Shown one piece after another: positions 1-16,488 of a stretch of 64,000 nt of DNA. How positions within the stretch are numbered: the first letter of the stretch is position 1; each line of letters opens with the position of its first letter. The notes beneath the pieces were generated by a model, which ran no database searches, was not told the origin of the DNA, and saw only the letters and a program-made list of their open reading frames with translations. The translations under genes were made by a program, and so were the position numbers. Source of the stretch: Gemmatimonadota bacterium (GTDB taxonomy: Bacteria > Gemmatimonadota > Gemmatimonadetes > Gemmatimonadales > GWC2-71-9); NCBI GenBank assembly GCA_036679605.1, contig JAZDCZ010000091.1:8521-72520 (forward strand). Direction: 5' to 3'.

Positions 1-28
1 CGAGCGCGTGGATGCCGCTGACTGGTAG
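1..28 (+). CDS. 3' end of probable antitoxin preceding VapC (truncated by window edge)
   Basis: Frame 2 reads ERVDAADW* and overlaps the vapC start, as expected for a TA operon. Confidence 0.4.
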
Positions 29-413
29 TTATCTCCTTGACACCAACATCGTCATCGGACTACTGGCGGGCGACGCCGACATCAGGGAACACGTGTCAGC
101 GGCGGGGCGGGTGTACGTCCCAAGCATCGTGCTGGGTGAACTCTACTACGGTGTACAGAAGTCCGGCCGCCCGACCGAGAATGCGAAGCGCATCGATGCG
201 CTCGCTCAGTCCGCGGCCGTGCTGGCGTGCGATGCCGCTACCGCCACGGTGTACGGGGAGCTGAAAGCCCGTCTGCGCGAGCGGGGGACGCCAATTCCCG
301 AGAATGATTTGTGGATCGCCGCGCTCGCGGTCCAACATGACCTCACGCTCGTCACGCGTGACGCGCACTTCGACGCTGTTCCGGTCCTCTCCACCGTAGC
401 CTGGGGGCGCTGA
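12..413 (+). CDS. vapC: PIN-domain toxin, VapC family
   Basis: Motifs YLLDTN, VLGELYYG, ENDLWIAA, LVTRDAHF; 133 aa. Confidence 0.93.
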   Translation: MPLTGSYLLDTNIVIGLLAGDADIREHVSAAGRVYVPSIVLGELYYGVQKSGRPTENAKRIDALAQSAAVLACDAATATVYGELKARLRERGTPIPENDLWIAALAVQHDLTLVTRDAHFDAVPVLSTVAWGR

Positions 414-420
414 CTCCGCC

Positions 421-653
421 CCACTCCCCCCCAAAAGTGCACGTCGGCGATTTTTAGTGCATATTACGATCAAAATCCGAGTGAGGTGAGCGGCTAAAGG
501 AAGCAAGCGCAACGGATTGCGGCGCTCTGGTCGTAGCCGAAAGCGTCGATCAGGACAGTTACGCAGGAAGACCCGATTGGGCTGGCCGGCGGGCTCAACC
601 TGTACGGGTTTGCCAATGGGGATCCGATCAATTTCAGTGATCCGTTTGGATTG
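421..653 (+). repeat. Array repeat copy 1: C-tract + conserved site + linker + Rhs core stub
   Basis: CCACT-Cn-AAAGTGCACGTCGGCGATTTTTAGTGCATATTACGATCAAAAT...TQEDPIGLAGGLNLYGFANGDPINFSDPFGL; near-identical copies downstream. Confidence 0.95.
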
Positions 654-1091
654 TGTGTCTGGGATGCATGTGCGATTGAGGGAGCCAGTATCGGGGTGGT
701 TGGCGTCGCAGCCATCGGCACCGGTATCGCTGTCGCCGCGGTTGCCGTAGCGAACGGTGAGCAGATCGGCAACGCGCTGGACGCCGGACTTGAGGCCGGG
801 AAGAAACTTGTGACCGGTATCTTTGCAGCAGTATCGACGAAGATCCACGAGAAAAAACTTGCTGGTCTGGAACGAAATGCCAACCTCCATTTTGGGTTTA
901 TTGGTGGAAACGGTCCTTCAGGAAAAGATCCGAACAAATGGACCAACAAGTGGAAGAAGGATATTCAAAAGGCGATTCGCGGGATGCGAAAACGACTGAA
1001 TCGCCTCAAAGGAGATAAGAAGATCGAGAAGTGGAGAAACCGCATCGAGCAGCTGGAGCGGCGGCTTCAGGACCTCGAAGGAGGACCATAG
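561..1091 (+). CDS. Orphan Rhs C-terminal toxin module 1 (no proper start; unknown basic domain after a hydrophobic helix)
   Basis: Rhs core end DPIG...DPFGL in frame with ORF 651..1091; in-frame TAG at 534 upstream. Confidence 0.8.
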   Translation, partial: TQEDPIGLAGGLNLYGFANGDPINFSDPFGLCVWDACAIEGASIGVVGVAAIGTGIAVAAVAVANGEQIGNALDAGLEAGKKLVTGIFAAVSTKIHEKKLAGLERNANLHFGFIGGNGPSGKDPNKWTNKWKKDIQKAIRGMRKRLNRLKGDKKIEKWRNRIEQLERRLQDLEGGP

Positions 1092-1424
1092 ATGAGTGGG
1101 ACACCTTCAGAACATCTTGAATTCACTCGGTCAATCGATGCGTTCTTGAGTGGTATTGGCGTTGGTTCGGCAGATGAGCGCGCGGATTTGGCGGTCGACT
1201 TGGCGGATACACTCTACGCCGCTCGTGATGTGGAGAGGATGCTTGGCGAGCTTCTGGATCTGGATCTGGACAGCCCGTCGCAAGTGGACCGTGCCTTAGA
1301 ACTGACCGCCAACATTGAAGTGCAGTTGTTCACGGAGCTGAAGGACCATCTCTTGGATCTTCAGCGGAGCTGGCCCATTCTGTTCCAGAAGCTTGGGGCT
1401 CTCGCTGAGCAGGCAGACACCTAG
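1092..1424 (+). CDS. Putative immunity protein for toxin 1 (acidic, cytoplasmic)
   Basis: Abuts the toxin stop; GGAGG RBS; 110 aa. Confidence 0.7.
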   Translation: MSGTPSEHLEFTRSIDAFLSGIGVGSADERADLAVDLADTLYAARDVERMLGELLDLDLDSPSQVDRALELTANIEVQLFTELKDHLLDLQRSWPILFQKLGALAEQADT

Positions 1425-1516
1425 GCTTCGGGTGGCGCCGGCCTTTGCCGAGGCTTAGTAGTTCGCGTGCTTCGCCGTTGCGGCCGCGTCGTCTTGCGGT
1501 TCTTGGGTAGCAGCGC

Positions 1517-1717
1517 TTATGCCGAGCGCCGTCGTGACTTGACGAGTGCGTCGACGAACTTGAGGACCGCTCGTTGATCGGCGGGTGGTAGCGACTCGAT
1601 TCTTGCGAGCCGTTTCATGAGCCTCGCCTTTTTGGGCGAGGCTTTTGTTTTGACGCGTTTCAATCCAAGTAGTTCGTCGGCGCTCACCTTGAGCGCGATC
1701 GCCAGGTCGGCGAGCAA
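1517..1717 (-). pseudogene. 3' half of XRE-family HTH regulator
   Basis: LADLAIALKVSADELLG...LPPADQRAVLKFVDALV matches the intact copy at 12714-13085; N-terminus missing. Confidence 0.8.
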
Positions 1718-1890
1718 CGCTCCGCCTGGACGATGGTATCGAACTGGAGGCGGTGGTCGGTTGGCACCGCGGACACGAGCGACCTGCTAGCGGTCGACTT
1801 GGAACGGGGCGAGCCGGCTCGGGCGCCCGAAGGCTAACCCAGCCCGTCATTGGCGCCGGCTCCCCGAGTCCCTGCACCCGGCACGCTACC

Positions 1891-1919
1891 TTGCGTGGTG
1901 ATGCTCAAACGGGCATATT
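1891..1919 (+). promoter_or_regulatory. Putative higBA promoter/operator
   Basis: TTGCGT-17-CATATT overlapped by imperfect palindrome ATGCTC-AAAC-GGGCAT. Confidence 0.5.
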
Positions 1920-1921
1920 AG

Positions 1922-2311
1922 ATGGTGACACGGAACGATCATGAGGTTCTCACCCCAGTCGAGTGGATCGGCTCGTCGCGCGAGGAGCTACGGACCATGC
2001 CGCAGGACGTTCGAGACACGTTTGGCTACGCGCTCTATGAAGCGCAGCGCGGCAAACAGCACCGGCGGGCGAAGCGCTTGAAGGGCGACCTAGCGGGGCT
2101 GGTCGAGCTAGTCGATGATTTCAATCGCAACACCTACCGTGCGATCTACACGGTGAAAATGGCTGGCGTCGTCTACGTACTGCACGTGTTCCAGAAAAAA
2201 TCGACGCGGGGAATTGCGACTCCGAAACGCGAGCTCGCGGTGATCAAGGAGCGGTGGAAACGAGCGAAAGCGCACTATGCGGCACATTACGGAGGTACAG
2301 AGGATGGCTAA
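1922..2311 (+). CDS. higB: RelE/HigB-like toxin (phage Gp49-like), toxin-first TA
   Basis: WIGSSREEL, TYRAIYTV, VYVLHVFQKKS..GIATP motifs. Confidence 0.88.
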   Translation: MVTRNDHEVLTPVEWIGSSREELRTMPQDVRDTFGYALYEAQRGKQHRRAKRLKGDLAGLVELVDDFNRNTYRAIYTVKMAGVVYVLHVFQKKSTRGIATPKRELAVIKERWKRAKAHYAAHYGGTEDG

Positions 2312-2663
2312 GCGCAAGATCGGGGCGGCTCCCCACGACATCCCGGTGACCCGGGGCAGCGGCAATGTGTTCTCCGATCTCGGGCTGCCAAAGCCACAGG
2401 AACGACTTGCGAAGGCACAGTTGGCGTCGCTGATCGACGATGCCATTCGGGAACGGAAGCTGACGCAACGGCAAGCTGCTGCGTTGTTGGGCATCGACCA
2501 GCCGAAGATCTCGCGGTTGCTCAGCGGCCGCCTCAGCGGTTTCTCTACGCAACGGCTCCTCGATTTCCTCACCGCACTTGGGCGGGACGTGAACATCGTA
2601 GTGCGCGCGCCACGGCGCCGTCGGCAGGGCCGCCTGCGCGTGCGCATGCTTGCGCCCCGCTGA
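2304..2663 (+). CDS. higA: HigA-like XRE antitoxin
   Basis: GSGNVFSDLG...LTQRQAAALLGIDQPKISRL; overlaps toxin stop. Confidence 0.88.
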   Translation: MAKRKIGAAPHDIPVTRGSGNVFSDLGLPKPQERLAKAQLASLIDDAIRERKLTQRQAAALLGIDQPKISRLLSGRLSGFSTQRLLDFLTALGRDVNIVVRAPRRRRQGRLRVRMLAPR

Positions 2664-2671
2664 CTCGTCTG

Positions 2672-2904
2672 CCACTCCCCCCTGAGAATGCACGTCGGCG
2701 ATTTTTAGTGCATATTACGATCAAAATTCAGGTGAGGTGAGCGGCTAAGAAAAAGAAGCACAACGGATTGCGGCGTCGCGGTCGTACCAGAACGCGTCGA
2801 CCAGGACATATACGCAGGAAGACCCGATCGGGCTGGCCGGTGGGCTCAACCTGTATGGGTTTGCCAACGGGGATCCGGTTAATTTCAGTGATCCGTTTGG
2901 GTTG
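2672..2904 (+). repeat. Array repeat copy 2
   Basis: Same site, linker and Rhs stub as 421-653. Confidence 0.95.
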
Positions 2905-3372
2905 TGTCCTGACCCGCCTTGCTTCAAGGTGGAAGGGAGCGAAGAGTTTAAACGCTTGTGGCGATCGCTGGTGAAAGAGTCGTCGCGGTTAGCCGGGTTC
3001 GTGAAGGAAGCGAGCGCCGCAGATAAACCTGATTTCATTTTGCGGGAAACTGAAGCCTCGACCTTGGACACGTTTGGCAAGCCAGGTGGTATCACCTTCT
3101 TCTTTGATGCGGAGGGAAGATCTGTGGAGGCGGGCTCTGGGGCTGGGATCACAAAGATCGACTCTCGGGTTAGCTCTACAGATCTGGGTAATGCCAGTAC
3201 ACGCGCGATGATAGCCAAGCGTGGGGGGGTGCCAACTCTCGGAAATGTTATGGTGCACGAGTTCTCTCACGGGATTTTGGCTATACAGGGCTTTAGATCA
3301 ACTGAGAAGCAAGCAGGGCTGTCAGAGTGTGCGATCATCAAGCAGGTTGCCGGAGGTCGCTGTAAGCCATGA
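2812..3372 (+). CDS. Orphan Rhs C-terminal toxin module 2, HExxH metallopeptidase-like
   Basis: Rhs stub in frame; VMVHEFSHG motif; in-frame TAA at 2746 and no start before the stub. Confidence 0.75.
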   Translation, partial: TQEDPIGLAGGLNLYGFANGDPVNFSDPFGLCPDPPCFKVEGSEEFKRLWRSLVKESSRLAGFVKEASAADKPDFILRETEASTLDTFGKPGGITFFFDAEGRSVEAGSGAGITKIDSRVSSTDLGNASTRAMIAKRGGVPTLGNVMVHEFSHGILAIQGFRSTEKQAGLSECAIIKQVAGGRCKP

Positions 3373-4094
3373 TGGTGCAGAAGCTAACAGTGGCAGCGAT
3401 GGTTGTTGGCTTCGCGTTCATTACCTATCGCGACGGCCCAAAGGTTCAACTAGTGCAGTCATGCCCTCAGGGGATATCGGCAGGCGTCCTGATGCGCGAA
3501 AAGCTCGGGCTTGGCTCACCAACAGGTTTCGTTCGAGGAGAGCTTAAGGAACTGGGACGGGAACATTCACGTACAGCAGCGCCTCAGGTTGGGTTCTATT
3601 CCGTGAACCGTCGCCATGCGCCTGAACGTGAATGGTTGCGTTTTGCGATAGACTCGGCGGGTATGGGGTACCGCATTTCAGGGTTTCCGACTCTGGACCT
3701 CGAGGCTCTTGCCTGTCGAATGACCGTAAGTCGTGTAACATCACCCGGTGATGTATGGCGCGCGCTGCAAGCCTTTGCTGAGGTTTTAGCCCCCTTCCGC
3801 GGGCCGACCTATCTACTTGGGGTTTCCGAAGAAGGAGTTGAGGACCACCCCGAGAGCTGGCGATTGCTCGGAGACTCCACAGACTTTCCCAGTCCGCAAA
3901 TTGAGTGGTCAGAAGAACGACGTGCCTATCTAGGTGTCGTAAGCGTGCTGTGGTCTTATGAAGCGCGAGATCACCTGGTCGAGTGGCGCTTTGTCGTGGC
4001 ACAAACAGGGCAGATCCTGGCTCTTAACGAGCGCCTACTTGCTGGGCAGAGGGGAATCCGGACATTGAGTTTCTCACGTGAATCATTAAGGTAA
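3369..4094 (+). CDS. Putative exported immunity protein for toxin 2
   Basis: ATGA overlap with toxin stop; hydrophobic N-terminus. Confidence 0.65.
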   Translation: MMVQKLTVAAMVVGFAFITYRDGPKVQLVQSCPQGISAGVLMREKLGLGSPTGFVRGELKELGREHSRTAAPQVGFYSVNRRHAPEREWLRFAIDSAGMGYRISGFPTLDLEALACRMTVSRVTSPGDVWRALQAFAEVLAPFRGPTYLLGVSEEGVEDHPESWRLLGDSTDFPSPQIEWSEERRAYLGVVSVLWSYEARDHLVEWRFVVAQTGQILALNERLLAGQRGIRTLSFSRESLR

Positions 4095-4122
4095 CTAGGC
4101 AGTCGCTTGATCCTCCACATTC

Positions 4123-4150
4123 AGCCCGGTTTCGGCCGGGCTTTTCTTTA
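4123..4150 (+). terminator. Rho-independent terminator
   Basis: AGCCCGGT-TTCG-GCCGGGCT followed by TTTCTTT. Confidence 0.7.
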
Positions 4151-4320
4151 TTCTGAGGTAATCCAGCGTCGGCTTGGTGCTTGAGCATGAGGGAGTCGAG
4201 TAGGGCGTTGGTGATCTTCTTCTCGTCGGCGTTGAACTGACCGAGACCTTCGAATTGCAGGCGGAAGTCGTCGTCGGGTCCGCGCCGGCCGTCTTCGAAC
4301 ACCAACGCATTCGCACCGAC
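4150..4320 (-). pseudogene. C-terminal remnant of XRE-type repressor (second subfamily)
   Basis: ALVFEDGRRGPDDDFRLQFEGLGQFNADEKKITNALLDSLMLKHQA; same position and orientation as the other XRE remnants. Confidence 0.6.
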
Positions 4321-4368
4321 ACCTACCCCTTGGCCAATGTCTCGTGGCCAGTGTAAGTTATTCGTGCC

Positions 4369-4659
4369 ATGGGAGTTCAAGACCGCCTCACCAAGCTACG
4401 GGATATTATCCATGCCACCGCCGCCGCGCATGGCGCTCGGGACGTACGGGTTTTCGGGTCTGTGGCGCGGGGCGAGGAGGCGGAAAACAGTGACATTGAC
4501 TTCCTCGTTACGTTGGAACCGGGTAGGACGCTGCTCGACGTGGCGCGGCTGGAGATGCGCCTTGAGAGCTTACTCGGGCGGCACGTGGATGTCGTGACTG
4601 AAAGTGGACTGCGCGAGCCCCTTCGCACGGATGCCCTGCGCGAAGCCGTTCGTGTCTGA
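4369..4659 (+). CDS. Minimal nucleotidyltransferase (MNT) antitoxin
   Basis: VFGSVARGE...SDIDFLV, VDVVT motifs; 96 aa. Confidence 0.92.
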   Translation: MGVQDRLTKLRDIIHATAAAHGARDVRVFGSVARGEEAENSDIDFLVTLEPGRTLLDVARLEMRLESLLGRHVDVVTESGLREPLRTDALREAVRV

Positions 4660-5008
4660 GGGCCGTCGTGCGGCCCTGGCTCGCCTGCGCCACATGGTGG
4701 AGGCTGCCGACGCCATCATCGGGTATACGGCTCGCGGCCGGGAGGTGTTTGACAGCGACTCCGCCGTGCGCGAGGCGATTCTGTATCAAGTGGTCGTGCT
4801 TGGCGAGGCGGCGAAGGCGGTACTTGCCGCCGACCCGTCGCTTGAGAATGCGCTGCCGGAAGTGGAATGGTCGCCGATTGCTCGTATGCGAGACCGGGTG
4901 GCGCACCACTACTGGGCAACGGACCGTGATGTCGTGTGGGCCACGGCTACGGTTGCCGTGCCCGAACTCCGTGCAGCCCTTGCTGGGGCGCTTGAGCGCC
5001 TTGGGTAG
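4652..5008 (+). CDS. HEPN (DUF86) RNase toxin
   Basis: VLGEAAK, PEVEW, MRDRVAHHY (Rx4H) motifs; overlaps MNT; GTG start inferred. Confidence 0.9.
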   Translation: MSEGRRAALARLRHMVEAADAIIGYTARGREVFDSDSAVREAILYQVVVLGEAAKAVLAADPSLENALPEVEWSPIARMRDRVAHHYWATDRDVVWATATVAVPELRAALAGALERLG

Positions 5009-5068
5009 TCGCTCAGCGGTCTGCGCGCCCACCGGCCGATGGTCTCTCCCGTACCCGTCTATCTCACC

Positions 5069-5301
5069 TCACCCCCTCCCCAAAGTGCACGTCGGCGATT
5101 TTTAGTGCATATTACGATCAAAATTAGAGTGAGGTGAGCGGCTAAAGGAAGCAAGCGCAACTGATTGCGGCGCCCTGGTCGTAGCCGAAAGCGTCGATCA
5201 GGACAGTTACGCAGGAAGACCCGATCGGGCTGGCGGGCGGGCTCAACCTATACGGATTCGCCAACGGGGATCCGATCAACTTCAGTGATCCGTTCGGGCT
5301 G
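5069..5301 (+). repeat. Array repeat copy 3
   Basis: Same site, linker and Rhs stub. Confidence 0.95.
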
Positions 5302-5757
5302 TGTCCGCCGTGCAGTGTAGGAGAGCAGGGGATTGTATTCATCAAGCGCCACGAAGGGTTCAGGGCGAACGTTTATGATGACCTCGGTGGCCGAGGCACG
5401 ATCGGATACGGCCACCTCATCCTGCGAGGTGAGACCATCCAAGGCCCGCTAACTCGCGGACAGGGAGATGCACTGCTCCGGCAAGACCTCATAGTAAGGG
5501 TGCAGCCTGGACTTGATCTGATCACCGGTGACCTTAATCAAAACCAAGTCGACGCGGTCGGTAGTCTCATCTTCAACGTAGGCGTTTCCAACTTCGCTGG
5601 TTCGAGGGCACTCCAGAAACTGAACGCCGGCGACTTTGAAGGAGCGAAGGATGAGATGGCAGAATTCAGGCTCGTGAACGGCAAGGTTGAGCCAAGCTTG
5701 GTCCGTCGGCGCGCGGATGAGCGTCGTTTGTTTGACAAGAACGAGGGGGGGCGATGA
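5209..5757 (+). CDS. Orphan Rhs C-terminal toxin module 3: GH24 phage-type lysozyme
   Basis: Manual translation past DPFGL gives HEGFRANVYDDLGGRGTIGYGH (E-x8-D-x5-T), then FNVG and LVRRRADERRLF. Confidence 0.92.
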   Translation, partial: TQEDPIGLAGGLNLYGFANGDPINFSDPFGLCPPCSVGEQGIVFIKRHEGFRANVYDDLGGRGTIGYGHLILRGETIQGPLTRGQGDALLRQDLIVRVQPGLDLITGDLNQNQVDAVGSLIFNVGVSNFAGSRALQKLNAGDFEGAKDEMAEFRLVNGKVEPSLVRRRADERRLFDKNEGGR

Positions 5758-6095
5758 ACATGCTGATTCTGATGCTAACGCTGCAACTCGTGACCGTGTC
5801 CCGGCAATGCGACAATGCGCAAAACACAGTCGAATTGGAGGACTGTCTCAGACGAGAGCTAGATTCCCTCAATCTCGAAATCAGAGAGCGGGTATCTGAA
5901 ATTGAGGAACGTTTTCCGTCTCGGAAGCGTGTGCTTTTCGATCGCGCACAGCGGACGTGGTCACTTTATCGCGATCTCCAATGCGAGAGTGAGGCCGCCC
6001 AATTTGAAGGGGGAAGTATCGCGGGTGTATCAACGCTCCGCTGTCATATGCGCATTGCGGATGCACGGTTAACCGAGTTGAATGAGGTCTACTGA
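5754..6095 (+). CDS. Lysozyme inhibitor LprI (DUF1311)-like immunity protein
   Basis: C..AQNTVELEDC, AQRTWSLYRDLQC, GGSIAG...C motifs; signal-like N-terminus; overlaps toxin stop. Confidence 0.88.
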   Translation: MNMLILMLTLQLVTVSRQCDNAQNTVELEDCLRRELDSLNLEIRERVSEIEERFPSRKRVLFDRAQRTWSLYRDLQCESEAAQFEGGSIAGVSTLRCHMRIADARLTELNEVY

Positions 6096-6245
6096 AGGGA
6101 AACCGCTCCGCCCAGTGGCGCAACGGCCACGCCCCTCGAAGAGCAGTATGGCTAGCGGTACCGTCCGTCGGGTGAGTACGGTGATTCTATCTATGCAGTT
6201 TCGGACCATGGCAGCTTTTCATGTCCGCAAGACTTTGTTCGTAGG

Positions 6246-6560
6246 CTAGGTGCTCCATCGCCGTGACTCGACCAGTGCATCCACAAACTTGAGGACAGCC
6301 CGCTGATCTGATTGGGGTAGTTTTTCGACCTGCTGGAGCCTTTTGAGGAGCCTTGCCCTTTTGGGCGAGGCTTTCTCTTTCACAGGCTTGAGCCCTAGCA
6401 GTTCGTCGGCACTCACCTTGAGCGCTTTCGCGAGGTCAACGAGCAGCGTGCCGGGTGGCTGGGCGTCGTCCTGCTTATAATAAGGCGCCATCCCTCATGT
6501 CTTGCTGGGTGAGGTCGCGGCTCTTGCGGAGCCGATCGAGGCGGGGTCGGATAACTTCTT
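6246..6560 (-). pseudogene. Frameshifted/internally deleted XRE regulator
   Basis: RLDRLRKSRDLTQQ in one frame and YYKQDDAQPPG...LPQSDQRAVLKFVDALVESRR in another. Confidence 0.8.
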
Positions 6561-6645
6561 GTTCCGTACTCTCGGCGTGCCTCTTGGCCAAGGCGGTCGC
6601 CCATTCGGTGAAGTTTCGCCGAACGCACCCGTTTCGGACATCACC

Positions 6646-6685
6646 TTGACTGTGGCCATAAGTGTATGTACAGTAATGCTGTACA
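6646..6685 (+). promoter_or_regulatory. yefM-yoeB promoter with paired TGTACA operators
   Basis: TTGACT(6646)-17-TACAGT(6669); TGTACA at 6667 and 6680, the known YefM operator core. Confidence 0.75.
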
Positions 6686-6703
6686 GTTAATCAGGGTGTG
6701 CCG

Positions 6704-6994
6704 ATGGCCATTCGTACTACTTATACAGACGCCAGGCAGCGACTCGCCGAACTGTGGCGACGCGTTGAAGAAGACCGTGAACCGGTGATAATCACACGCC
6801 GTGGACACCAGGAGGTAGCCCTCGTGGCTGCCGACGAACTCGCAAGCCTGCAAGAGACCGCCCACCTGCTGCGGTCGCCGGCGAATGCGCGCCGCTTGTT
6901 GCGGGCGCTCGACCGTGCACTGGCGGGTGGCGGCAGACGTCGCTCGATGGAGGAATTGCAGCGGGAGTTGGACCTTGGGCCAGCGGCGGGGTAG
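6704..6994 (+). CDS. yefM: Phd/YefM antitoxin
   Basis: TYTDARQRLA, PVIITRRG, LQETAHLLRSPANARRL. Confidence 0.93.
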   Translation: MAIRTTYTDARQRLAELWRRVEEDREPVIITRRGHQEVALVAADELASLQETAHLLRSPANARRLLRALDRALAGGGRRRSMEELQRELDLGPAAG

Positions 6995-7253
6995 AGCCCG
7001 CAAGGCGATCTTCCAGAAGGAGTTTCTCGAGGATCTGCGATTTTGGGTAGGAAACGACCGCAAGACCGCGTTGCGGTGCCTGGATCTGGTGCAAGCGGCG
7101 TTGCGCGACCCGTTCACCGGTATTGGCAAACCTGAGCGATTGAGATATCTGGGTGGCAGCATGTGGTCTCGGCGATTGACACAGGAGCATCGCGTGGTGT
7201 ATCTGGTTCGGCACGATCGCATCGATTTTCTGCAGGCACGCTACCACTACTGA
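6975..7253 (+). CDS. yoeB: Txe/YoeB toxin
   Basis: PFTGIGKPERL, WSRRLTQEHRVVY, QARYHY; TTG start inferred from GGGAG RBS. Confidence 0.93.
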   Translation: MGQRRGRARKAIFQKEFLEDLRFWVGNDRKTALRCLDLVQAALRDPFTGIGKPERLRYLGGSMWSRRLTQEHRVVYLVRHDRIDFLQARYHY

Positions 7254-7275
7254 TCTTTCGGGAACCGCCTCGACC

Positions 7276-7509
7276 CCACTCCCCCCCCCAAAGTGCACGT
7301 CGGCGATTTTCAGTGCATATGACGATCAAGATTAGAGTGAGGTGAGCGGCTAAAGGAAGCAAGCGCAACTGATTGCGGCGCCCTGGTCGTACCCGAACGC
7401 GTCGATCAGGACAGTTACGCAGGAAGACCCGATTGGATTAGCCGGTGGGCTCAACCTGTATGGGTTTGCCAATGGGGATCCGGTCAATTTCTCGGATCCG
7501 TTTGGGCTG
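7276..7509 (+). repeat. Array repeat copy 4
   Basis: Same site, linker and Rhs stub. Confidence 0.95.
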
Positions 7510-7971
7510 TGTGTAGACAAGGACGCGACCTGTGACGATCTGGTTCGGCAACTGCGACTTCAAGAGGGCGGTGAGTTTCAGAAAGCTGCTGACTTGTTTG
7601 ACGGTTACCGGGGTGGTCAAGTCAGTTGGGTCACTGGTGACAACGCTTTACTGAATGTCAACTTTGCTAATCGAGATGGGAATGCCGAGACTTGGGTTGG
7701 AGGCATCTTCAACCCAGACAATGGCGACATTCTCCTGAACGCTGAGTTTTCGGGAGGTGACCGGTTGATCACCGCGGTACACGAATCACTTCACATAGCC
7801 GGTCTCGGCGATCAGCAGGATAGAGCGCAGATCTTGGGAGTCGAGCAGCGCGCGTACAACCAACTCTCTCCTGCAGCACAGGCCTCAGCAGTTCGACATT
7901 CAGATAGGTTCTTCCACGCATTTGGACCTCAGGCTGGAGTGCATCCCGTACCTGTTCGGGAGCGTAGGTGA
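7417..7971 (+). CDS. Orphan Rhs C-terminal toxin module 4, HExxH metallopeptidase-like
   Basis: Rhs stub in frame with ORF 7594..7971; TAVHESLHI motif. Confidence 0.75.
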   Translation, partial: TQEDPIGLAGGLNLYGFANGDPVNFSDPFGLCVDKDATCDDLVRQLRLQEGGEFQKAADLFDGYRGGQVSWVTGDNALLNVNFANRDGNAETWVGGIFNPDNGDILLNAEFSGGDRLITAVHESLHIAGLGDQQDRAQILGVEQRAYNQLSPAAQASAVRHSDRFFHAFGPQAGVHPVPVRERR

Positions 7972-8546
7972 TGATAGGACCTCGCGTAACTCCCGGCTTC
8001 GCGCTGCTGATGGGAGCTGTCCTTGCGGTATCATGCACTACAGAACCTTCCCGGAGGTTTGATAAAGGGGGGCCACTTCACTTGGACCCCACTAGTTGGC
8101 CGGCTGGGCTCTCTCTCGTGGTCGTCACTGTCGATGATACCGTTCGCGAGGGTGACCGCGTCCAGATTGGTTACGCAATTCGGAATAGGGGATCCGCAAT
8201 GCGCTTCCGAAATGATCCGTTGGATTTTGGTTTGGAAGTTTCCGGGCCGCGTGGAGAGATCCGTCCACAGCAGCAGTTGGAATTTCCGTCACTAGGCGAC
8301 TTGCCGGATCTCTATCTGCCGGATGGCAGTATGCTGGTCAACATCATTGATATCACCTGCATTAACGGTCAATACTTCTTGAAGAGTCGCTCCGACTGCA
8401 TTGCCAGTTTTCCTCTTGGTCTCGGCGAATTTCGGGTGATAATTACTTATCGCGGAACGGTCGTCTCGGACTCCGTCGATACCAGGGCGCAAGCCACAGG
8501 ACCTCGACTAGTCGACACTACCACTGTCGTGATTGTTCCGGAGTAG
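7968..8546 (+). CDS. Putative lipoprotein immunity protein for toxin 4
   Basis: GTGA overlap; lipobox-like LAVSC. Confidence 0.7.
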   Translation: MMIGPRVTPGFALLMGAVLAVSCTTEPSRRFDKGGPLHLDPTSWPAGLSLVVVTVDDTVREGDRVQIGYAIRNRGSAMRFRNDPLDFGLEVSGPRGEIRPQQQLEFPSLGDLPDLYLPDGSMLVNIIDITCINGQYFLKSRSDCIASFPLGLGEFRVIITYRGTVVSDSVDTRAQATGPRLVDTTTVVIVPE

Positions 8547-8649
8547 TCCCGTCCTGGTTTCTCAAGGTGAACAAGCGCTTGCCTAGTCGGCCCGCTGGTG
8601 ACTCGCCCTGAAGTTGAGTCGGCGCTACCTTGTAAGCGAGGAGGCGGAG

Positions 8650-8856
8650 ATGAGTGAATTGGTCTTTGTGGTAGAGGAAGCAGCCGAAGGGGGCTACATC
8701 GCGCGGGCGGTGGGTGCCTCGATCGTGACGGAATCCGATGACCTCGATGGACTGCGGGCTCAGGTGCGGGACGCGGTTCAATGTCACTTCGATGAGGGCG
8801 CGCGTCCCAAGCTGATCCGCTTGCACCACGTGCGCGACGAAGTCATAGCGGCGTGA
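8650..8856 (+). CDS. HicB-like antitoxin (short)
   Basis: FVVEEAAEGGYIARA...IVTESD...VRDAVQCHF; paired with HicA. Confidence 0.8.
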   Translation: MSELVFVVEEAAEGGYIARAVGASIVTESDDLDGLRAQVRDAVQCHFDEGARPKLIRLHHVRDEVIAA

Positions 8857-9101
8857 GGCTGGCGCGGGATCTCTCGGGCCGCGCGTTGGCGAAGGCCCTG
8901 GAGACGCTGGGATACCAGATCACGCGGCAGACGGGTAGCCACCTGCGTCTCACAACCCGAGAACGCGGGGAGCACCACGTGACGATCCCCAACCACAAGG
9001 CCCTGCGCGTGGGCACGCTCGCCAGCATCCTTGACGAGGTCGCTATCCACTTTAGCCTTGAGCGTGCCTCCGTTGTCGAGCGCCTCTTCGGCCACCGCTG
9101 A
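8853..9101 (+). CDS. hicA: HicA toxin
   Basis: LGYQITRQTGSHLRL, VTIPNH, GTLASIL. Confidence 0.92.
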   Translation: MRLARDLSGRALAKALETLGYQITRQTGSHLRLTTRERGEHHVTIPNHKALRVGTLASILDEVAIHFSLERASVVERLFGHR

Positions 9102-9138
9102 GCACCGTCTGGCCCGGTCCCCTTCAGCGATCCCACCG

Positions 9139-9194
9139 CACTCCCCCCCCGAAAGTCCACGTCGGCGATTTTGAGTACATATTACGATCAAAAT
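9139..9194 (+). repeat. Conserved site only (copy 5a), followed directly by a CGCGGAT-element end
   Basis: CACT-C8-GAAAGTCCACGTCGGCGATTTTGAGTACATATTACGATCAAAAT. Confidence 0.9.
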
Positions 9195-9195
9195 T

Positions 9196-9388
9196 GTGCC
9201 GCGGATACTAACGCGGATTGACGCGGGTGGGCCCGCGGATGATTACACTGATGGCCGCAGATAGGAACGCGGATTAACACGGATGGGGCCGCGGATGATT
9301 ATGCCGATAGCCGCGCATGTAGGTGAGGTCTTGTCTCAGGTGCGCCGCGAGCTGTCACTCAGGATGAACCTCCTGAACTGAAGCCGTT
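9196..9388 (+). mobile_element. Truncated, internally duplicated end of triple-CGCGGAT element
   Basis: Two tandem GCCGCGGAT-N4-ACGCGGAT-N2-ACGCGG units; ends with DEPPELKP, resembling the GxxExxY N-terminus NEPPTLHP. Confidence 0.6.
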
Positions 9389-9389
9389 C

Positions 9390-9622
9390 CCACTCCCCCC
9401 CGAAAGTGCACGTCGGCGATTTTCAGTGCATATTACGATCAATATTCGAGTGAGGTGAGCGGCTAAAGGAAGCAAGCGCAACTGATTGCGCCGCTCTGAT
9501 CGTAGCCGAAAGCGTCGACCAGGACAGTTACGCAGGAAGACCCGATCGGGCTGGCCGGTGGGCTCAATCTCTACGGGTTTGCCAACGGGGATCCGATTAA
9601 TTTCAGTGACCCGTTTGGGTTG
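9390..9622 (+). repeat. Array repeat copy 5b
   Basis: Same site, linker and Rhs stub. Confidence 0.95.
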
Positions 9623-10108
9623 TGTCCAGTGTGGCTCGATGGTATTCCGTGCGTAGCTCCGGTTGCCAACTTCATGACGCCAGCGCGGGCACCGGGTCAG
9701 CGGAGTGGAGTCGGCGGTAGTGAATTTGGCTTTACGCGTAGCGGTGGTGCTCTATTCCACAACGGTTTTGACCAGGATGCGCCTGTTCTGACCTCAATTG
9801 CAGCTCCAGGTGACGGTACACTGACCGTCGGATTCAACGACAAGTCCGGGCTCAACGTCACACTTGATCTTGGGAATGGAGCGTCCGTGAGTTTCTCTCA
9901 TCTGTCAAAAGCCCCTGCTGGGCTCGCTGTTGGCGAAGGCCTCCAAGTACAGGCTGGTCAGACGATCGGTTACGCGGGTACAAGTGGAAACTCTGCGGGA
10001 TCCGGACGCGATCCTCATGCCCACATCGTAACACGCGTGAAGCAACGAACGTGTAATCCACGCGACTTCTTTTCTGAAAGTGGTGGGGGTGGCAGTTGTG
10101 GGAACTAA
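9530..10108 (+). CDS. Orphan Rhs C-terminal toxin module 5: M23 metallopeptidase
   Basis: FHNGFD (HxxxD), FSHL, VQAGQTIGYAGTSGN, PHAH (HxH). Confidence 0.9.
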   Translation, partial: TQEDPIGLAGGLNLYGFANGDPINFSDPFGLCPVWLDGIPCVAPVANFMTPARAPGQRSGVGGSEFGFTRSGGALFHNGFDQDAPVLTSIAAPGDGTLTVGFNDKSGLNVTLDLGNGASVSFSHLSKAPAGLAVGEGLQVQAGQTIGYAGTSGNSAGSGRDPHAHIVTRVKQRTCNPRDFFSESGGGGSCGN

Positions 10109-10797
10109 TGTGCTCTAGGAATGCGGTCATTGTGCGTGCTAGTGGGCTATTGAGAACCGGCAGCATCGTCCTTCTGGTTCTACAGTTCGCAGCGTGCCGA
10201 AGTGCAAAGAAACAGGACGATGCCACTCCGCATACTTCTCGCGACCTGGCCTGCGATCCTGCAGAAGTGGTCGCGGTGAGTTCCGGAGACAAACAGGTCG
10301 CGGTTGTAGATCTAGATTGCGACGGTGTAAGTGACAGCGTGACAGTTACGTGGAAGATACACGAGACTGGGCGCCGTCCGACTCTTACCGTGCACGGCTC
10401 TTTAGGTGGTGAGATATCGACGGAAGGAGATTTTCTTCCAGAGCTTGTTTCCTTCGGCGACCTCGACAGTGACGGAATGCGAGACATACTCGTTGTTAGC
10501 GTCACTGAGTCGAGTGTGTTCGCTGAAGTCGTCATGGTTCACCGTGACGGGGATCTCAGTCTAGTGACTTTTCCTAGCCTTTCGTTGCGCCGAGCAATGC
10601 AATACCGGTTCCACGACGTAGGGTGGAGTTCGGGGTGCCTTGGCACTCTCATGCCTCGGCTGGAGCGATTAGGTACGGGAGGTCTTGCAGTGTCGTTGGC
10701 TACTGGAGACTACCGTCGGGAGGGTGACTGTGCACGCGCTCGTCGTCAGATATTGCGCGTCGTAGACCAGCGCTTTGAACCGGTTGAGGAACGCTGA
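10108..10797 (+). CDS. Putative lipoprotein immunity protein for toxin 5
   Basis: TAATG overlap; lipobox FAAC; DLDCDG and GDLDSDGMRD (FG-GAP-like) loops. Confidence 0.7.
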   Translation: MCSRNAVIVRASGLLRTGSIVLLVLQFAACRSAKKQDDATPHTSRDLACDPAEVVAVSSGDKQVAVVDLDCDGVSDSVTVTWKIHETGRRPTLTVHGSLGGEISTEGDFLPELVSFGDLDSDGMRDILVVSVTESSVFAEVVMVHRDGDLSLVTFPSLSLRRAMQYRFHDVGWSSGCLGTLMPRLERLGTGGLAVSLATGDYRREGDCARARRQILRVVDQRFEPVEER

Positions 10798-10857
10798 GTT
10801 CGATGCCGGAGCTATGTGAGCACATCCCGGCTTCGCTGGGCTGTGTGTTTTTGGTAG

Positions 10858-10923
10858 CTACGCCGTGCGCCGTCGTGACTCGACGAGTGCGTCGACGAAC
10901 TTGAGGACAGCTCGCTGATCTGA
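10858..10923 (-). pseudogene. Last ~21 codons of XRE regulator, cut by CGCGGAT element
   Basis: Reverse strand reads SDQRAVLKFVDALVESRRRTA*. Confidence 0.8.
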
Positions 10924-11587
10924 GAGCCGCGGATAAGAACGCGGATAGACGCGGATCTTTCGTACCTGCCCGTGGGTTGCACGACATTACCAGCCTCTGG
11001 AACTCTGCGCGTCTCCCAAAATTGAGCCGCAGATAATTACGCTGATGCACGCGGATGTTTCGTACCTGGCTGCGGGTTGCGCGACATTACCAGCCTCCGG
11101 AACTCTGCACGTCTCCCAAAATTGAGCAATAAGCCAACTTCGAGTTTCGTGGCGCGCAAATAGTTGAGCACTTGCGCCGTGTGGGAAGGCTCTAGCTGTG
11201 CGAGCGCTTTGATCTCGACCAGTACCTTGTGTTCCACAATGAGGTCTGTGCGAAATCGAGCGATTGGAAGGCCGCGATAACGGACTTCGGCTGGGGTTTC
11301 GGTGTCGACGAGAAGACTGGAGGCCCGGAGATCGTGTGCGAGGGCCCGCTGATAGACTCGCTCGGCGAAGCCTCGGCCGAGTGTGTTGAAGACCTCATAG
11401 AATGATCCGATTATATTGTGGGTGATGGCGGCGTGGGGCAAGTTGGGGTGCAGGGTTGGCGGTTCGTTCATGGACCGAATATGGTGCCCTCTGCGCGAAT
11501 TGCGGTATCGATTTTTTGCGCAGTGAAGCCTTTTCCCGCATTGGAGTGCGGTTAATCCGCGTTAATCCGCGCACCAATCCGTGGCCC
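10924..11587. mobile_element. Triple-CGCGGAT inverted-end element carrying GxxExxY (nested: outer end 10924, inner end 11024)
   Basis: Left ends GAGCCGCGGAT-N4-ACGCGGAT-N2-ACGCGGAT; right end is the inverted equivalent ending ATCCGTGGCCC, followed by GGAAGAC of the Rhs core. Confidence 0.7.
11037..11471 (-). CDS. GxxExxY protein (PD-(D/E)xK nuclease-like)
   Basis: LGRGFAERVY, RTDLIVE, LVEIKA, QVLNYL, GLLLNFG. Confidence 0.93.
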   Translation of the reverse strand: MNEPPTLHPNLPHAAITHNIIGSFYEVFNTLGRGFAERVYQRALAHDLRASSLLVDTETPAEVRYRGLPIARFRTDLIVEHKVLVEIKALAQLEPSHTAQVLNYLRATKLEVGLLLNFGRRAEFRRLVMSRNPQPGTKHPRASA

Positions 11588-11588
11588 G

Positions 11589-12152
11589 GAAGACCCGATC
11601 GGGCTGGCCGGTGGGCTCAACCTGTATGGGTTTGCAAATGGGGATCCGGTTAATTTCAGTGATCCGTTTGGGTTGTGTAAGGACAAGGACGGTGAAGAGC
11701 TGCCGGCGGATCAGTGTCGAGACGCAACCAAGCAGGAAGGCAAAGCGACCTACACAGCTGCGGTCGCAATGGGTTCGTGGACGTGGACGATGGGGAGAGA
11801 GGGTGAGCCGGCAAAGGACGTGGCGAACCAGGTTGGCGACTGCACCGACTACTGCGAGTCTGCTCACCGAGGCGCGGGACTTCCCGGCTTGGATCCGCGG
11901 CCAGCGACATCCGGGTTCGCCTCTTCCTCGGACTACCGCGCTTTGGGATCGGAAGCCCCCCAAGCTGGCGATGTGATCGTTCAGGGTGGGCATGCCGGCA
12001 TTTTCAGCGGGCAGTACGATAGTCAGGACAGACCACTCGGAATCCAGAACGGCGGCAGTGGAACGAAGGTGATTCCCTGGGGCCCCAATGTCTCTGGACT
12101 CGCCAAGGTGAACCCCGTGTTCTACCGGCGCCAGGTTCCAAAGAACCCCTAG
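11589..12152 (+). CDS. Orphan Rhs C-terminal toxin module 6: NlpC/P60-like (papain-fold) hydrolase
   Basis: Stub EDPIG...DPFGL; GDCTDYC, PQAGDVIV, GHAGIF motifs. Confidence 0.78.
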   Translation, partial: EDPIGLAGGLNLYGFANGDPVNFSDPFGLCKDKDGEELPADQCRDATKQEGKATYTAAVAMGSWTWTMGREGEPAKDVANQVGDCTDYCESAHRGAGLPGLDPRPATSGFASSSDYRALGSEAPQAGDVIVQGGHAGIFSGQYDSQDRPLGIQNGGSGTKVIPWGPNVSGLAKVNPVFYRRQVPKNP

Positions 12153-12167
12153 CCGCACGGAGCAAGC

Positions 12168-12692
12168 ATGAAGACGAAATCGACACTAGCGGCAGTGATA
12201 CTTATACTTACAGCTTGCAGTTCTGCAGGAGAGAGCCAGATGCGGGCGGAAGCTGCGAGAAGTCTAGTCAAACAATTCGTAGACGCCGAGATGGATGGTG
12301 ATTCAGAAACGGCGTGGGCACTCCTGACGGGATGTGACGTCTTGCCAACGGCCGACTACATCGAGCCGACGCTCTCATACGAGATTCTGGATGCTATCGA
12401 ACAGAATGGGCGAGTCACGATCCCAGTACGGTACGTAGTTCTAGGGAAGGCATGGTCGTATGACGTCCGGCAGGTCGGGCAGCACAACTGGCGATTTGTG
12501 CCCGACGTCCGCGTCGATACCGTTGAATTCTCCATCGACGATGATCGCGAGGGGCCATTGAGGATAGTCTGCGCCTACCTCCCGCCGATACATGATGCGG
12601 CTATGCAGATGGCAGGAACGATTGAGCGGTTTGATGAAGAATCACGGGCGGCTTGGGAGGATGCGATGCGAAAAGCGCGGGAGCTACGGTAA
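12168..12692 (+). CDS. Putative lipoprotein immunity protein for toxin 6
   Basis: MKTKSTLAAVILILTAC lipobox; directly after toxin. Confidence 0.75.
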   Translation: MKTKSTLAAVILILTACSSAGESQMRAEAARSLVKQFVDAEMDGDSETAWALLTGCDVLPTADYIEPTLSYEILDAIEQNGRVTIPVRYVVLGKAWSYDVRQVGQHNWRFVPDVRVDTVEFSIDDDREGPLRIVCAYLPPIHDAAMQMAGTIERFDEESRAAWEDAMRKARELR

Positions 12693-12713
12693 CCTGCGCT
12701 GGTGCGACTGCTG

Positions 12714-13085
12714 CTACGCAGAGCGCCGTCGTGATTCGACGAGGGCGTCGACGAACTTGAGGACGGCGCGTTGATCTGACTGGGGCAGTTTTTCTACCTG
12801 CTGGATCCGTTTCATGAGCCTCGCCTTTTTCGGTGAGGCTTTTGGTTTCATGGGTTTCAATCCAAGTAGCCCGTCGGCGGAAACCTTGAGCGCGATTGCC
12901 AGGTCGGCGAGCAACGCGCCGGGCGGTTGAGCATCCTGTGTTTCGTAGTAGGCGATGACCCGCTGTGACACATCGACCATGTGACCCAACTCGGCCTGTG
13001 TAACGTCCCGGGTCCGCCGGAGGTCTGCCAACCGCGGGCCAAAGCCTTCGATGGTCCGCTGCTTCATCTGCAACACCTCGCTCAT
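12714..13085 (-). CDS. XRE-family HTH regulator (only apparently intact copy)
   Basis: FGPRLADLRRTRDVTQAELG...VSQRVIAYYE; GGAGG RBS. Confidence 0.88.
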   Translation of the reverse strand: MSEVLQMKQRTIEGFGPRLADLRRTRDVTQAELGHMVDVSQRVIAYYETQDAQPPGALLADLAIALKVSADGLLGLKPMKPKASPKKARLMKRIQQVEKLPQSDQRAVLKFVDALVESRRRSA

Positions 13086-13200
13086 GTCGTGACCTCCGAA
13101 GGGTAAGGGTGGTATCCGGTAACGGTGCGTCTGACTTGGACAGTTGGCGATACAGCCTGCGTGCCTTGGCAATGGAGGGAGCCGAGCTTAGACTGATACC

Positions 13201-13437
13201 ATGCCGACGGTCCTCCGGACTGGCCCTTACCGATTCTTCTTCTATTCCGCCGATCGGGAGGAGCCGCCGCATGTGCACGTCGAGCGCGACGACTGCCGGG
13301 CGAAATTCTGGCTTGACACGGTCCGGCTGCACGACAGTACGGCGTTCCAACGCCCCGAACTTGGGCGCCTGGAGGGGATAGTGCAGAGGCATCACGACGA
13401 GTTGCTGAGAGCATGGCATGACTTCTTCGCCGCTTGA
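13201..13437 (+). CDS. DUF4160-family protein (putative TA partner)
   Basis: MPTVLR.GPYRFFFYS.D..EPPHVHV...AKFWL. Confidence 0.88.
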   Translation: MPTVLRTGPYRFFFYSADREEPPHVHVERDDCRAKFWLDTVRLHDSTAFQRPELGRLEGIVQRHHDELLRAWHDFFAA

Positions 13438-13723
13438 ACTCCGGTCAGGGGTGGCTCAGACCGTCACGGTGACCGACGAGGCCCTGGTCGTCGACTTGGT
13501 GGATGGGCGAACTGTCTCTGTGCCGCTCATGTGGTTCCCCCGCCTCCTGCATGGCACACCTGCCGAGCGCGGCGAGTGGCGCTTGATCGGGCGCGGCGAG
13601 GGCATTCACTGGCAACGACTCGACGAGGATATCAGCGTCGACAGTCTGCTGGCGGGGCGCGCGTCTGGCGAGGCTCAGGCTTCGCTTCAACGTTGGCTCG
13701 AGAACCGCAAGGCTGCTGGCTGA
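13418..13723 (+). CDS. DUF2442-family protein (putative TA partner)
   Basis: LVDGRTVSVPLMWFPRL, GIHWQRLDEDISV. Confidence 0.88.
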   Translation: MTSSPLELRSGVAQTVTVTDEALVVDLVDGRTVSVPLMWFPRLLHGTPAERGEWRLIGRGEGIHWQRLDEDISVDSLLAGRASGEAQASLQRWLENRKAAG

Positions 13724-13937
13724 AGTTACGTTAACTGGGGCCGCGGATGATCGATCTGGGGCCTGGGGGCACCGAACGACGACTCGGTGCGTGACTGACT
13801 GCGTTTGGGCATTGCGGTGGGGTGCCGGTGGCCAGAGTGAACTCAAGTAGAGCGCTCTCGCAAGTGCAGCTGGTGGATCGCGGCTAAAGCCGCACGAGCA
13901 AGAGAAGATTCCGTCCCCACCACCCGCGAAGCGCGCC

Positions 13938-13994
13938 CCACTCCCCCTCAAGAGTGCACGTCGGCGATTTTCAGTGCATATTACGATCAAAACT
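13938..13994 (+). repeat. Conserved site only (copy 7), followed directly by a CGCGGAT element
   Basis: CCACT-C5-TCAAGAGTGCACGTCGGCGATTTTCAGTGCATATTACGATCAAAACT. Confidence 0.9.
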
Positions 13995-14187: not shown

Positions 14188-14421
14188 GAGCCGCGGATAG
14201 CAACGCGGATAGACGCGGATAACAACTCTGGTCGGCCGAAGACTCCGCCCTGGCGGCCTGGATTGTTGTAGTTCTGCGGCATGCACGTAGCAGCCACGGA
14301 TGATGGCGCGGATTGACAGGGCAGCGCGAGGACTTTCGTTCAGTTGTACTGGGAGCCGTGTGCTTTTCGCGTGCGAGATGGCCCGAAATCCGCGTTCATC
14401 CGCGCAACAGATCCGCGGCCC
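14188..14421. mobile_element. Gene-less (MITE-like) triple-CGCGGAT element B with 7-bp flanking direct repeat
   Basis: GGAAGAC at 14181-14187 and 14422-14428; ends GAGCCGCGGAT / ATCCGCGGCCC. Confidence 0.78.
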
Positions 14422-14422
14422 G

Positions 14423-14989: not shown

Positions 14990-14993
14990 CGAT

Positions 14994-15290
14994 ATGGGAT
15001 CGGATCTCGAACCGTTCATCGTCGACGTCATAGAGATGAGCCAGCGAGTGATTAGTGAATTCCGATCAACGCTGGCAGCACTCGGTTTGGACGCAGACGT
15101 GCCTCAAGTGAGCCGTTCTCCCCATGGCGTAGAGATCGTCTCCTATGTGCGCCGCCAGGGAGATATTGAGGATGCCATTGAGTTTGCGGCGGTCGAGAAT
15201 GACCGGGTCACTTACTCCGTGAGAGAACTAGAGAAGTGGCTTCGTAACGCGCTGGACGATGTCGTCCGCAGAGCGGTTGAGGGAGCGTGA
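14994..15290 (+). CDS. Putative immunity protein for toxin 7 (acidic, cytoplasmic)
   Basis: Starts 4 bp after toxin stop; GAGG RBS. Confidence 0.7.
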   Translation: MGSDLEPFIVDVIEMSQRVISEFRSTLAALGLDADVPQVSRSPHGVEIVSYVRRQGDIEDAIEFAAVENDRVTYSVRELEKWLRNALDDVVRRAVEGA

Positions 15291-16352: not shown

Positions 16353-16431
16353 TGGGTCAGCTAGGCAGCACCTCAATCCGTCGAGCACCATTGCGAAGCG
16401 GCCGCAACGGCGGGCTGGACCTATATGGGTT

Positions 16432-16461
16432 GGTGGGTTCGATTCCCACACGCTCCCGCCA
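16432..16461 (+). repeat. 3' fragment of tRNA-Sec (selC), probable attR of the island
   Basis: GGTGGGTTCGATTCCCAC T-arm + 8-nt acceptor strand ACGCTCCC + G-CCA; no matching 5' half nearby. Confidence 0.7.
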
Positions 16462-16488
16462 CAACGACGATTTCGCAGTATCTTTGCC

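Follow-up and report, generated by a model that had tools for sequence, protein, structure and literature searches.

A 55-bp repeat in an array of orphan Rhs toxin tips as a candidate end signal of a primase-helicase element

What does a short non-coding sequence do that recurs, copy after copy, in front of the orphan tips of Rhs toxins? This question is posed by a 64,000-nucleotide stretch of a Gemmatimonadota genome (GenBank assembly GCA_036679605.1, contig JAZDCZ010000091.1), hereafter the window, which is the whole stretch of DNA analyzed and corresponds to positions 8521-72520 of contig C426 of the genome studied (G000). It carries a 55-bp repeat, each copy of which sits between a toxin-antitoxin (TA) pair and an orphan Rhs tip, and which a preliminary description took for a tyrosine-recombinase crossover or binding site akin to dif, to pdif modules, and to integrative mobile elements exploiting Xer (IMEX), marking the boundaries of cassettes. 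Here, it is argued that the repeat is rather likely to be a cis-acting end signal read by the proteins of the element to which it belongs, with toxin tips being swapped by recombination in the neighboring Rhs end.

A pattern search recovered all seven copies previously described, at 421..476, 2672..2727, 5069..5124, 7276..7332, 9139..9194, 9390..9445, and 13938..13993, all on the + strand, and gave no match in 100 shuffles of the sequence. An eighth copy lies upstream of the window (C426:1437-1492), and none was found on the other 433 contigs of the genome when up to 10 mismatches per 42 bases were allowed. All eight copies are direct and none is inverted. The first copy in the window forms the right end of the most complete element, the genes of which lie upstream of the window, and the two copies that flank this complete unit have identical 42-bp cores. 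Five of the window copies head a 237-nt repeat (family D1) that consists of the 55-bp repeat, a common linker, and Rhs core-end codons; the remaining two, at 9139 and 13938, were correctly reported to be without the linker.

When 185,579 species genomes were scanned for an exact 18-mer, 57 loci were returned, 10 of which, in 5 genomes all labelled Gemmatimonadota, match 17-20 of the next 22 bases as well as the linker; the other 47 agree at no more than 8 of 22 further bases and were rejected as chance matches. Among 301 genomes of the phylum, a 40-bp repeat pattern was found only in G000 (8 copies) and G060 (4 copies), and G059 has two weaker copies (G040, G059, and G060 are labels of other genomes compared; L-numbers label compared loci). 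The 8 own copies and 16 from other genomes make up the 24 close copies referred to below.

Gene content, distribution, and right end of the element

Upstream of the window, the complete unit encodes an XRE gene, a CHC2-Toprim primase, and a tyrosine recombinase, and the order of a unit is Rhs core end with tip, immunity gene, XRE gene (opposite strand), primase-MCM fusion, recombinase, palindromes, TA slot, repeat, linker, and the next Rhs tip. The recombinase passes NF002331/PRK01287 and has a complete catalytic set (R-K-H-R-H-Y); it is annotated as 'XerC', yet it is separate from the XerC and XerD of the host. The primase has DnaG-type CHC2 and Toprim domains fused to an MCM-like AAA+ domain. 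A model of its C-terminus based on 43 sequences (pLDDT 75.6) matches MCM helicases best (Foldseek E 3e-9, TM 0.44-0.51); a single-sequence fold prediction was uninformative (pLDDT 34.7), and a profile search of PDB sequences gave no match. The best NCBIfam match of the XRE protein is RstR, below the cut-off.

A metagenome scan yielded at least 566 relatives of the primase. Among the best 80 of these loci, 75 have the recombinase, 57 the XRE gene, and 28 an Rhs end. In Proteobacteria, rhs, FG-GAP, and cdiA-like genes precede the unit, and a place after rhs and cdiA-like genes recurs in several phyla; gene order, gene families, and position behind rhs or cdiA-like genes are read directly from these loci, as is the conservation of the end segment described below. 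The element is present in 56 of 5426 complete Escherichia coli genomes, often in tandem, on 35 plasmid records (Leptospira included), and in 3 of the 301 phylum genomes. E. coli MP1 and 06-00048 carry, each at a different rhs locus, a full-length rhs gene, its immunity gene, the element, and an orphan tip, and E. coli E189 and JNE120442 have one extra tip between rhs-immunity and the element; homology to element-less genomes begins at the DPIG codons. Genome G040 carries three complete units in tandem with a full-length rhs upstream, and seven diverged counterparts of the repeat before orphan tips. Three small circular records (8.8, 11.3, and 13.1 kb) also carry the backbone. No relatives of the element were found in viral contigs or phage records, and on that ground a phage origin was rejected.

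In the right ends of these relatives, it is the left half of the repeat that recurs, and the 'dif-like' half is not conserved. In a post-recombinase set of 50 non-redundant clusters drawn from 67 segments, the left-half motif of the repeat was found in 32 clusters (shuffle mean 6.7, maximum 12; reverse strand 0), and in 18 of the 31 clusters not used for its design (reverse strand 0). In five own copies, this motif precedes EDPIG by 133-134 bp; both enteric circular records and 4 of 4 E. coli loci have it 125-126 bp ahead of DPIG, and the Lonsdalea copy of the left half has 14 of 16 bases in common with the own sequence. The G040 counterparts keep the left-half motif, TAYGA 22 bp further on, and GCGGCTAA some 20 bp beyond that; what they do not keep is the hexamer or the 'XerD arm' of the preliminary description. 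Likeness among the 6 full own copies is 95.5% in the core, 86.9% in the linker, and 89.4% in the Rhs coding end. A second motif, GCWGCTAA, clusters within the primase gene (79 matches in one 250-bp bin, from 67 loci), at the recombinase end (51 matches), and further downstream near the repeat. Within the element's non-coding right end, no part is better conserved than the 55-bp repeat.

An arm-spacer-arm dyad, that is, inverted arms around a 6-8 bp overlap, is not conserved in the repeat and is seen instead in separate palindromes. Two of these, with XerC-like and XerD-like arms, follow the recombinase of the complete unit at C426:8162-8250 (L001; fold z -2.9). A XerC-like arm that matches at 10 of 11 bases lies at C426:8162, and XerD-like arms that match the host dif arm equally well lie at 8240 and 22246, where arm matches at this level number 29 (XerC) and 12 (XerD) in the whole genome. 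The last of these arms is window 13726..13736 (+ strand) and corresponds to the right half of the post-recombinase palindrome of the complete element. Arm palindromes also follow the G040 recombinases, the strict palindrome pattern occurs in 17 of the 50 non-redundant relatives (shuffle 0.9), and those of the enteric form make one long hairpin (fold z -3.6, -2.2). In sequence terms, then, it is the separate palindromes, not the 55-bp repeat, that are the Xer-like sites. In L136 and at window 13726-13993, the repeat follows about 130-200 bp past the XerD-like arm, with no TA pair between.

The palindromes vary among loci. A half copy of the palindrome region is found at window 13726-13770; the same four arms occur in other orders in L137 and L203, and one long hairpin is formed in L098, L099, and L145. 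At positions 2480-2670 of L131 (G060:C128), an IS-like transposase fragment adjoins the left edge of the XerD-arm palindrome.

Possible roles of the repeat

We propose that the element would enter and leave an rhs gene via recombination in the common Rhs core end of about 100 bp. Entry would fuse the element's tip to the rhs gene and push the old tip behind the element's right end, and repeated rounds of such entry would build the array. Most copies would later have lost the primase and the recombinase and kept the end, resulting in non-autonomous cassettes. The repeat and the adjacent GCWGCTAA would together form a strand-specific cis signal, most likely for primase-helicase loading or as an origin, because the conserved part is strand-specific, is not a dyad, and lies beside a motif that also occurs inside the primase gene, and because better candidate sites for the recombinase exist elsewhere. 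A Xer-type reaction, if there is one, would take place at the separate palindromes and not at the repeat, and an end signal of this kind would let deleted copies be mobilized in trans. A wider version of this proposal, which we advance tentatively and rate at somewhat less than an even chance, makes the element self-replicating and cross-phylum and the repeat part of its replication or mobilization signal. The element would excise together with the tip of a resident polymorphic toxin gene, travel as a TA-stabilized circle, and reinsert in another rhs or cdiA-like gene; it would then be the episomal tip reservoir postulated in 2009, with the deleted copies as non-autonomous cassettes moved in trans.

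Several points weigh against this proposal. Binding of the repeat, replication, circles, and excision are all predictions made from sequence. The left-half family motif was drawn by eye and is loose, and a few of the held-out matches look like chance. GCWGCTAA precedes the motif in Acidobacteria-like loci and follows it by about 45 bp here, and because this order differs, the homology of the two layouts is something that we infer. In the most complete own copy, the primase gene is split over two frames. An Rhs end was seen in just 28 of the best 80 loci, in a search of short contigs for this toxin family alone. The first own copy, at contig position 1437, directly follows a tip and immunity gene, an arrangement that also fits integration at the repeat, and alleles are mosaic at several points of the 240-bp block, so that no crossover point is fixed. 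Each of the three circular records may be a tandem repeat collapsed in assembly; the 8.8-kb record, from Shigella, equals one tandem unit. Sequencing depth in the probable source run is even (about 13-17 over unique pieces), and no joint that closes the complete unit into a circle was found among the contigs of that run. More broadly, the contigs of three runs of one study gave no circle or amplification, and two apparent joints, one back to position 70 and one skipping from 8277 to 8937, were set aside since they match a paralogous copy outside the stretch analyzed. From another run of that study comes a contig that links the recombinase and palindromes, across unread bases, to a repeat copy without the TA pair.

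Among the alternatives, the one that survives best, unlikely as we consider it, is that the element's PRK01287 recombinase uses the repeat as its crossover (att) site, units being integrated and excised there and hence running from repeat to repeat. It accommodates the position of the complete unit between two direct copies with identical cores, the sharp change of upstream flanks at the C-tract, the swapped alleles that come right after two TA flanks held in common with G060, and the sharp beginning of one copy in another genome (L028) at the core. It also accommodates the TA-family gene just upstream of 6 of the 8 own copies and 11 of the 16 other close copies; among distinct G040 flanks scanned the count is 1 of 5, and the flank scan as a whole took in 63 of 76 candidate open reading frames (ORFs), duplicates and overlapping frames being left out. 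What such a site should have, a conserved arm-spacer-arm dyad, is missing from the repeat, which folds no better than shuffles (z +0.25, +0.34), and the true arm palindromes adjoin the recombinase. Further, the first E. coli unit starts with a full-length rhs and has no repeat at its left. The flanks do switch at the C-tract, yet the alleles are mosaic throughout, and mosaic alleles equally fit gene conversion. The preliminary reading of a recombinase site is only partly upheld: the repeat does mark cassette boundaries and a tyrosine-recombinase element does stand behind the array, but the repeat is most unlikely to be a pdif- or IMEX-like site for host XerCD.

Slightly more doubtful is the idea that the repeat, as a promoter or operator, maintains the expression of orphan immunity genes. 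The repeat is always oriented toward the tip, the TAYGAY hexamer, which is like a -10 box, is kept in Gemmatimonadota-type counterparts, and the repeat persists in dead copies and in G059 and G060, which lack a PRK01287 recombinase above the cut-off. The hexamer is, however, not enriched across the family (7 of 50 clusters, compared with 6.2 in shuffles), and none of the nine sigma-70-like sites (-35/-10 at 16-18 bp) in window 1-16500 overlaps a copy, so a sigma-70 promoter at the repeat was rejected. An orphan immunity gene is indeed expressed in E. coli EC93, but from an upstream promoter and not from one of its own, according to the available part of that report (PMC3150448).

A passive repeat is improbable; it would be a fragment of the element's end that was duplicated together with the Rhs end and kept uniform through gene conversion. 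Mosaic alleles and the invariable position of the repeat within a larger duplicated block would be expected of such a piece; a core more conserved than the adjacent Rhs coding end, and a left half that persists across phyla at almost the same distance from DPIG, would not. Two other candidates were rejected: a small ORF through the repeat, judged by eye to be a short frame with neither a start nor a conserved length, and a structured RNA or single-stranded DNA hairpin, as the repeat folds like shuffles. An Rfam search of the window returned two tRNAs and nothing else.

The comparison with the host dif, which had been set beforehand as a check, leaves little of the suggested dif/XerD likeness. 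The host dif is classical and single and lies on another contig than the array (C133:40507); of 41 family genomes, one of which is unpublished, 37 contain its pattern a single time, and dif and array are on different contigs in 4 of 4 relatives checked. The repeat matches the host dif at 13 of 28 bases at best, a score equalled by 767 of 2000 GC-matched genome windows, and the supposed hexamer and XerD arm (17 bases), for which a 12/17 match to E. coli dif had been reported, match the host dif at 9 of 17, equalled by 984 of 2000 windows. The supposed central hexamer is kept in 12 of the 24 close copies and is missing from the diverged counterparts; its recurrence at 20-bp spacing, also described earlier, is real, but both halves are intact in just 10 of the 24. 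A pdif- or IMEX-like site for host XerCD is accordingly very improbable: although the host encodes XerC and XerD, repeat-flanked TA pairs resemble pdif modules, and 11 repeat bases in another register match the host XerC arm at 8, the 25-kb island has over 30 further 8/11 matches to that arm, the one in the repeat is followed by no center or XerD arm, the copies are all direct, the array is away from dif here and in the four relatives, and the true arms lie elsewhere. The dif label of the repeat is hereby corrected, the real Xer-like sites being the separate palindromes after the recombinase.

Organization of the array and its surroundings

The window array is a stack of deleted element copies inside a tRNA-Sec island. 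Contig C426 begins inside an intact-type Rhs end, a homologous Rhs end at the contig start passes TIGR03696, and the first 23 kb of the contig hold nine Rhs ends, each leading a tip and then a small gene. Behind the first repeat copy, the linker with the family motif GCGGCTAA and the Rhs core end (EDPIG..DPFG) occupy 477..656 (+), and further copies of this block lie at 2728-2907, 5125-5304, 7333-7512, and 9446-9625 (+). The tips that follow, all on the + strand, were characterized by a Pfam scan of 42 proteins. Those at 651..1424, 2902..4094, and 7507..8546, each with a presumed immunity gene, have no Pfam family and owe their assigned role to position. The tip at 5299..6095 is a phage-type lysozyme (PF00959) paired with an LprI lysozyme inhibitor (PF07007), and that at 9620..10797 is an M23 peptidase (PF01551) with a presumed immunity gene. 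Two further units consist of an Rhs core end and an orphan tip, followed by a presumed immunity lipoprotein (11588..12692) or a presumed immunity gene (14421..15290), their roles being likewise presumptive. In total, 5 of the 7 window tips have no Pfam family or an uninformative one, and toxicity and immunity are presumed roles.

Seven different TA-type pairs were identified in window 12-16352, six of which occupy the same slot right before a repeat copy. All are on the + strand: a PIN toxin at 12..413, with its antitoxin just upstream of the window, that stops 7 bp before copy 1; a HigBA-like pair (PF05973, PF13744) at 1922..2663 that stops 8 bp before copy 2; an MNT-HepT pair (PF01909, PF01934) at 4369..5008 before copy 3; a YefM-YoeB pair at 6698..7253 before copy 4; a HicB-like gene (no Pfam match) with a HicA toxin at 8650..9101 before copy 5; a DUF4160-DUF2442 pair, presumably TA, at 13201..13723 that stops 2 bp before the XerD-like arm; and an AbrB/MazE-PIN pair at 15688..16352, at the right end of the island. 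The XRE repressor of the element is encoded at 12714..13172 (- strand; Pfam), and XRE remnants lie at 1517-1717, 6246-6491, and 10857-10923. A hairpin within the XRE coding sequence is kept (1619-1644, 6349-6372, 12816-12841) and, when read on the toxin-immunity strand, has the score of a terminator, a terminator search having picked out two of the three; such a terminator-like hairpin may account for the persistence of the remnants.

The two linker-less copies, at 9139 and 13938, had suggested that the repeat is a separable unit. The linker is indeed missing from both, the second of which is preceded by a native spacer of about 200 bp, yet in both, and from an identical base onward, it has been replaced by a second repeat family, one with inverted ends (window 9195-9330, 10924-11587, 13994-14140, and 14190-14420). 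Since G060 copies that share two upstream flanks with the linker-less copies keep the linker, the alignments indicate that the linker-less state is probably secondary, and the notion of a separable unit is weakened. The second repeat family, which may be a small mobile unit, also interrupts an XRE remnant and an Rhs end. One of its copies surrounds a GxxExxY gene (TIGR04256); another, inside an Rhs core end, is bordered on either side by a 7-bp duplication.

A 38-bp duplicate of the 3' end of tRNA-Sec (16431..16468, + strand) marks the right border of the island. The full tRNA-Sec is on contig C65 (C65:37604-37700), followed by a sigma-54 activator and then a YD-repeat ORF of 913 aa that runs off the contig; this is the same tRNA-Sec island, and the assembly does not join C65 to C426. 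In the stretch of the island read, no island integrase was seen. The Rhs core end also opens four short contigs (C149, C236, C313, and C393), where different tips follow it, and C149 has a primase fragment; these represent further rhs loci or tip variants in G000. Beyond the island, window 17833-21218 holds what we take, from their translations, to be microcompartment-like genes (two shell-like ORFs, an aldehyde dehydrogenase-like gene, and a PduL-like gene).

Comparison with known systems

Xer-like recombinases have been described beside poly-immunity arrays (PMC3482391) and in the Bacteroidales rAID systems (10.1101/2025.05.03.651265), and Xer-like genes beside such arrays are attributed to Martinkus et al. 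(2026, Curr Biol 36:176, as cited in 10.64898/2026.07.13.738213), a study that may describe the enteric form of the element. As far as the accessible parts of these sources go, they share with the present locus a tyrosine recombinase beside arrays of toxin or immunity genes and, in rAID, conserved intergenic motifs; they differ in consisting of immunity arrays with one recombinase, with no primase-helicase mentioned. A literature search of incomplete coverage found no description of a primase-helicase-recombinase-Rhs backbone or of its end signal, although Martinkus et al. (2026) and Additional File 1 of PMC3482391 may overlap with it, and a term search of the available text of PMC10991766, PMC9933511, PMC11481896, and PMC10539506 gave no description of the element. 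The element family is thus probably under-described.

The sites of dif, pdif modules, and IMEX (CTXphi, TLCphi, and GGI) are treated in PMC5357621 and PMC7315799, in the parts available; to go by a title cited in the latter, pdif modules are flanked by inversely oriented sites, and the repeat copies here are all direct. The element resembles IMEX in that its separate palindromes carry near-perfect host XerC and XerD arms (10/11 each), arms of a kind that the 55-bp repeat does not have. It differs from IMEX in having its own recombinase (NF002331 above cut-off) and in sitting away from dif, the E. coli copies being at rhs loci. The long palindrome hairpin of the enteric form is presumably similar to that of the CTXphi attP.

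Primase-helicase satellites and cassette chromosomes include P4, with its alpha protein and ori/crr iterons, phage-inducible chromosomal islands (PICIs), and SCCmec, with the MCM-like helicase Cch. By analogy, the element would share with them the plan of a small integrative unit with a repressor, a primase-helicase, and a recombinase, and the use of a short motif that occurs in both orientations and also inside the replication gene. It differs in that a DnaG-type primase is fused to the MCM-like domain, in that its target is the end of a toxin gene and not a tRNA, and in that it has no packaging genes and no match in phage or viral collections. Many 'XerC' and 'DNA primase' annotations beside rhs genes can now be read as the backbone of one element family.

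The closest parallel is the displacement of rhs and orphan cdiA-CT/cdiI modules. It is known that orphan tips form arrays and are exchanged by recombination (PMC2935791, PMC3150448, PMC4927057, PMC10539506), and the passages available to us describe features found here as well, namely a full-length toxin gene, a stack of orphan tips and their immunity genes, a short piece of the conserved core end before each tip, and exchange by recombination in that piece. The present array differs from C-terminal displacement systems, as presented there, in that each tip comes with a backbone of repressor, primase-helicase, recombinase, TA slot, and end signal. The C-terminal displacement model, in the part of the text consulted (PMC2935791), needs stable episomal circles and leaves their origin and carrier open. 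The layout of rhs, immunity gene, element, and orphan tip in E. coli is the layout that C-terminal displacement predicts. The source of new toxin tips for the weapons of Rhs and contact-dependent inhibition (CDI) systems is an open question, and the element is a candidate carrier with named proteins and cis sites; it occurs in complete E. coli genomes, and the question can therefore be tested in a laboratory strain. The element may be the long-postulated vehicle that moves toxin tips between bacteria, and it fits the as yet unidentified episomal carrier of the C-terminal displacement model.

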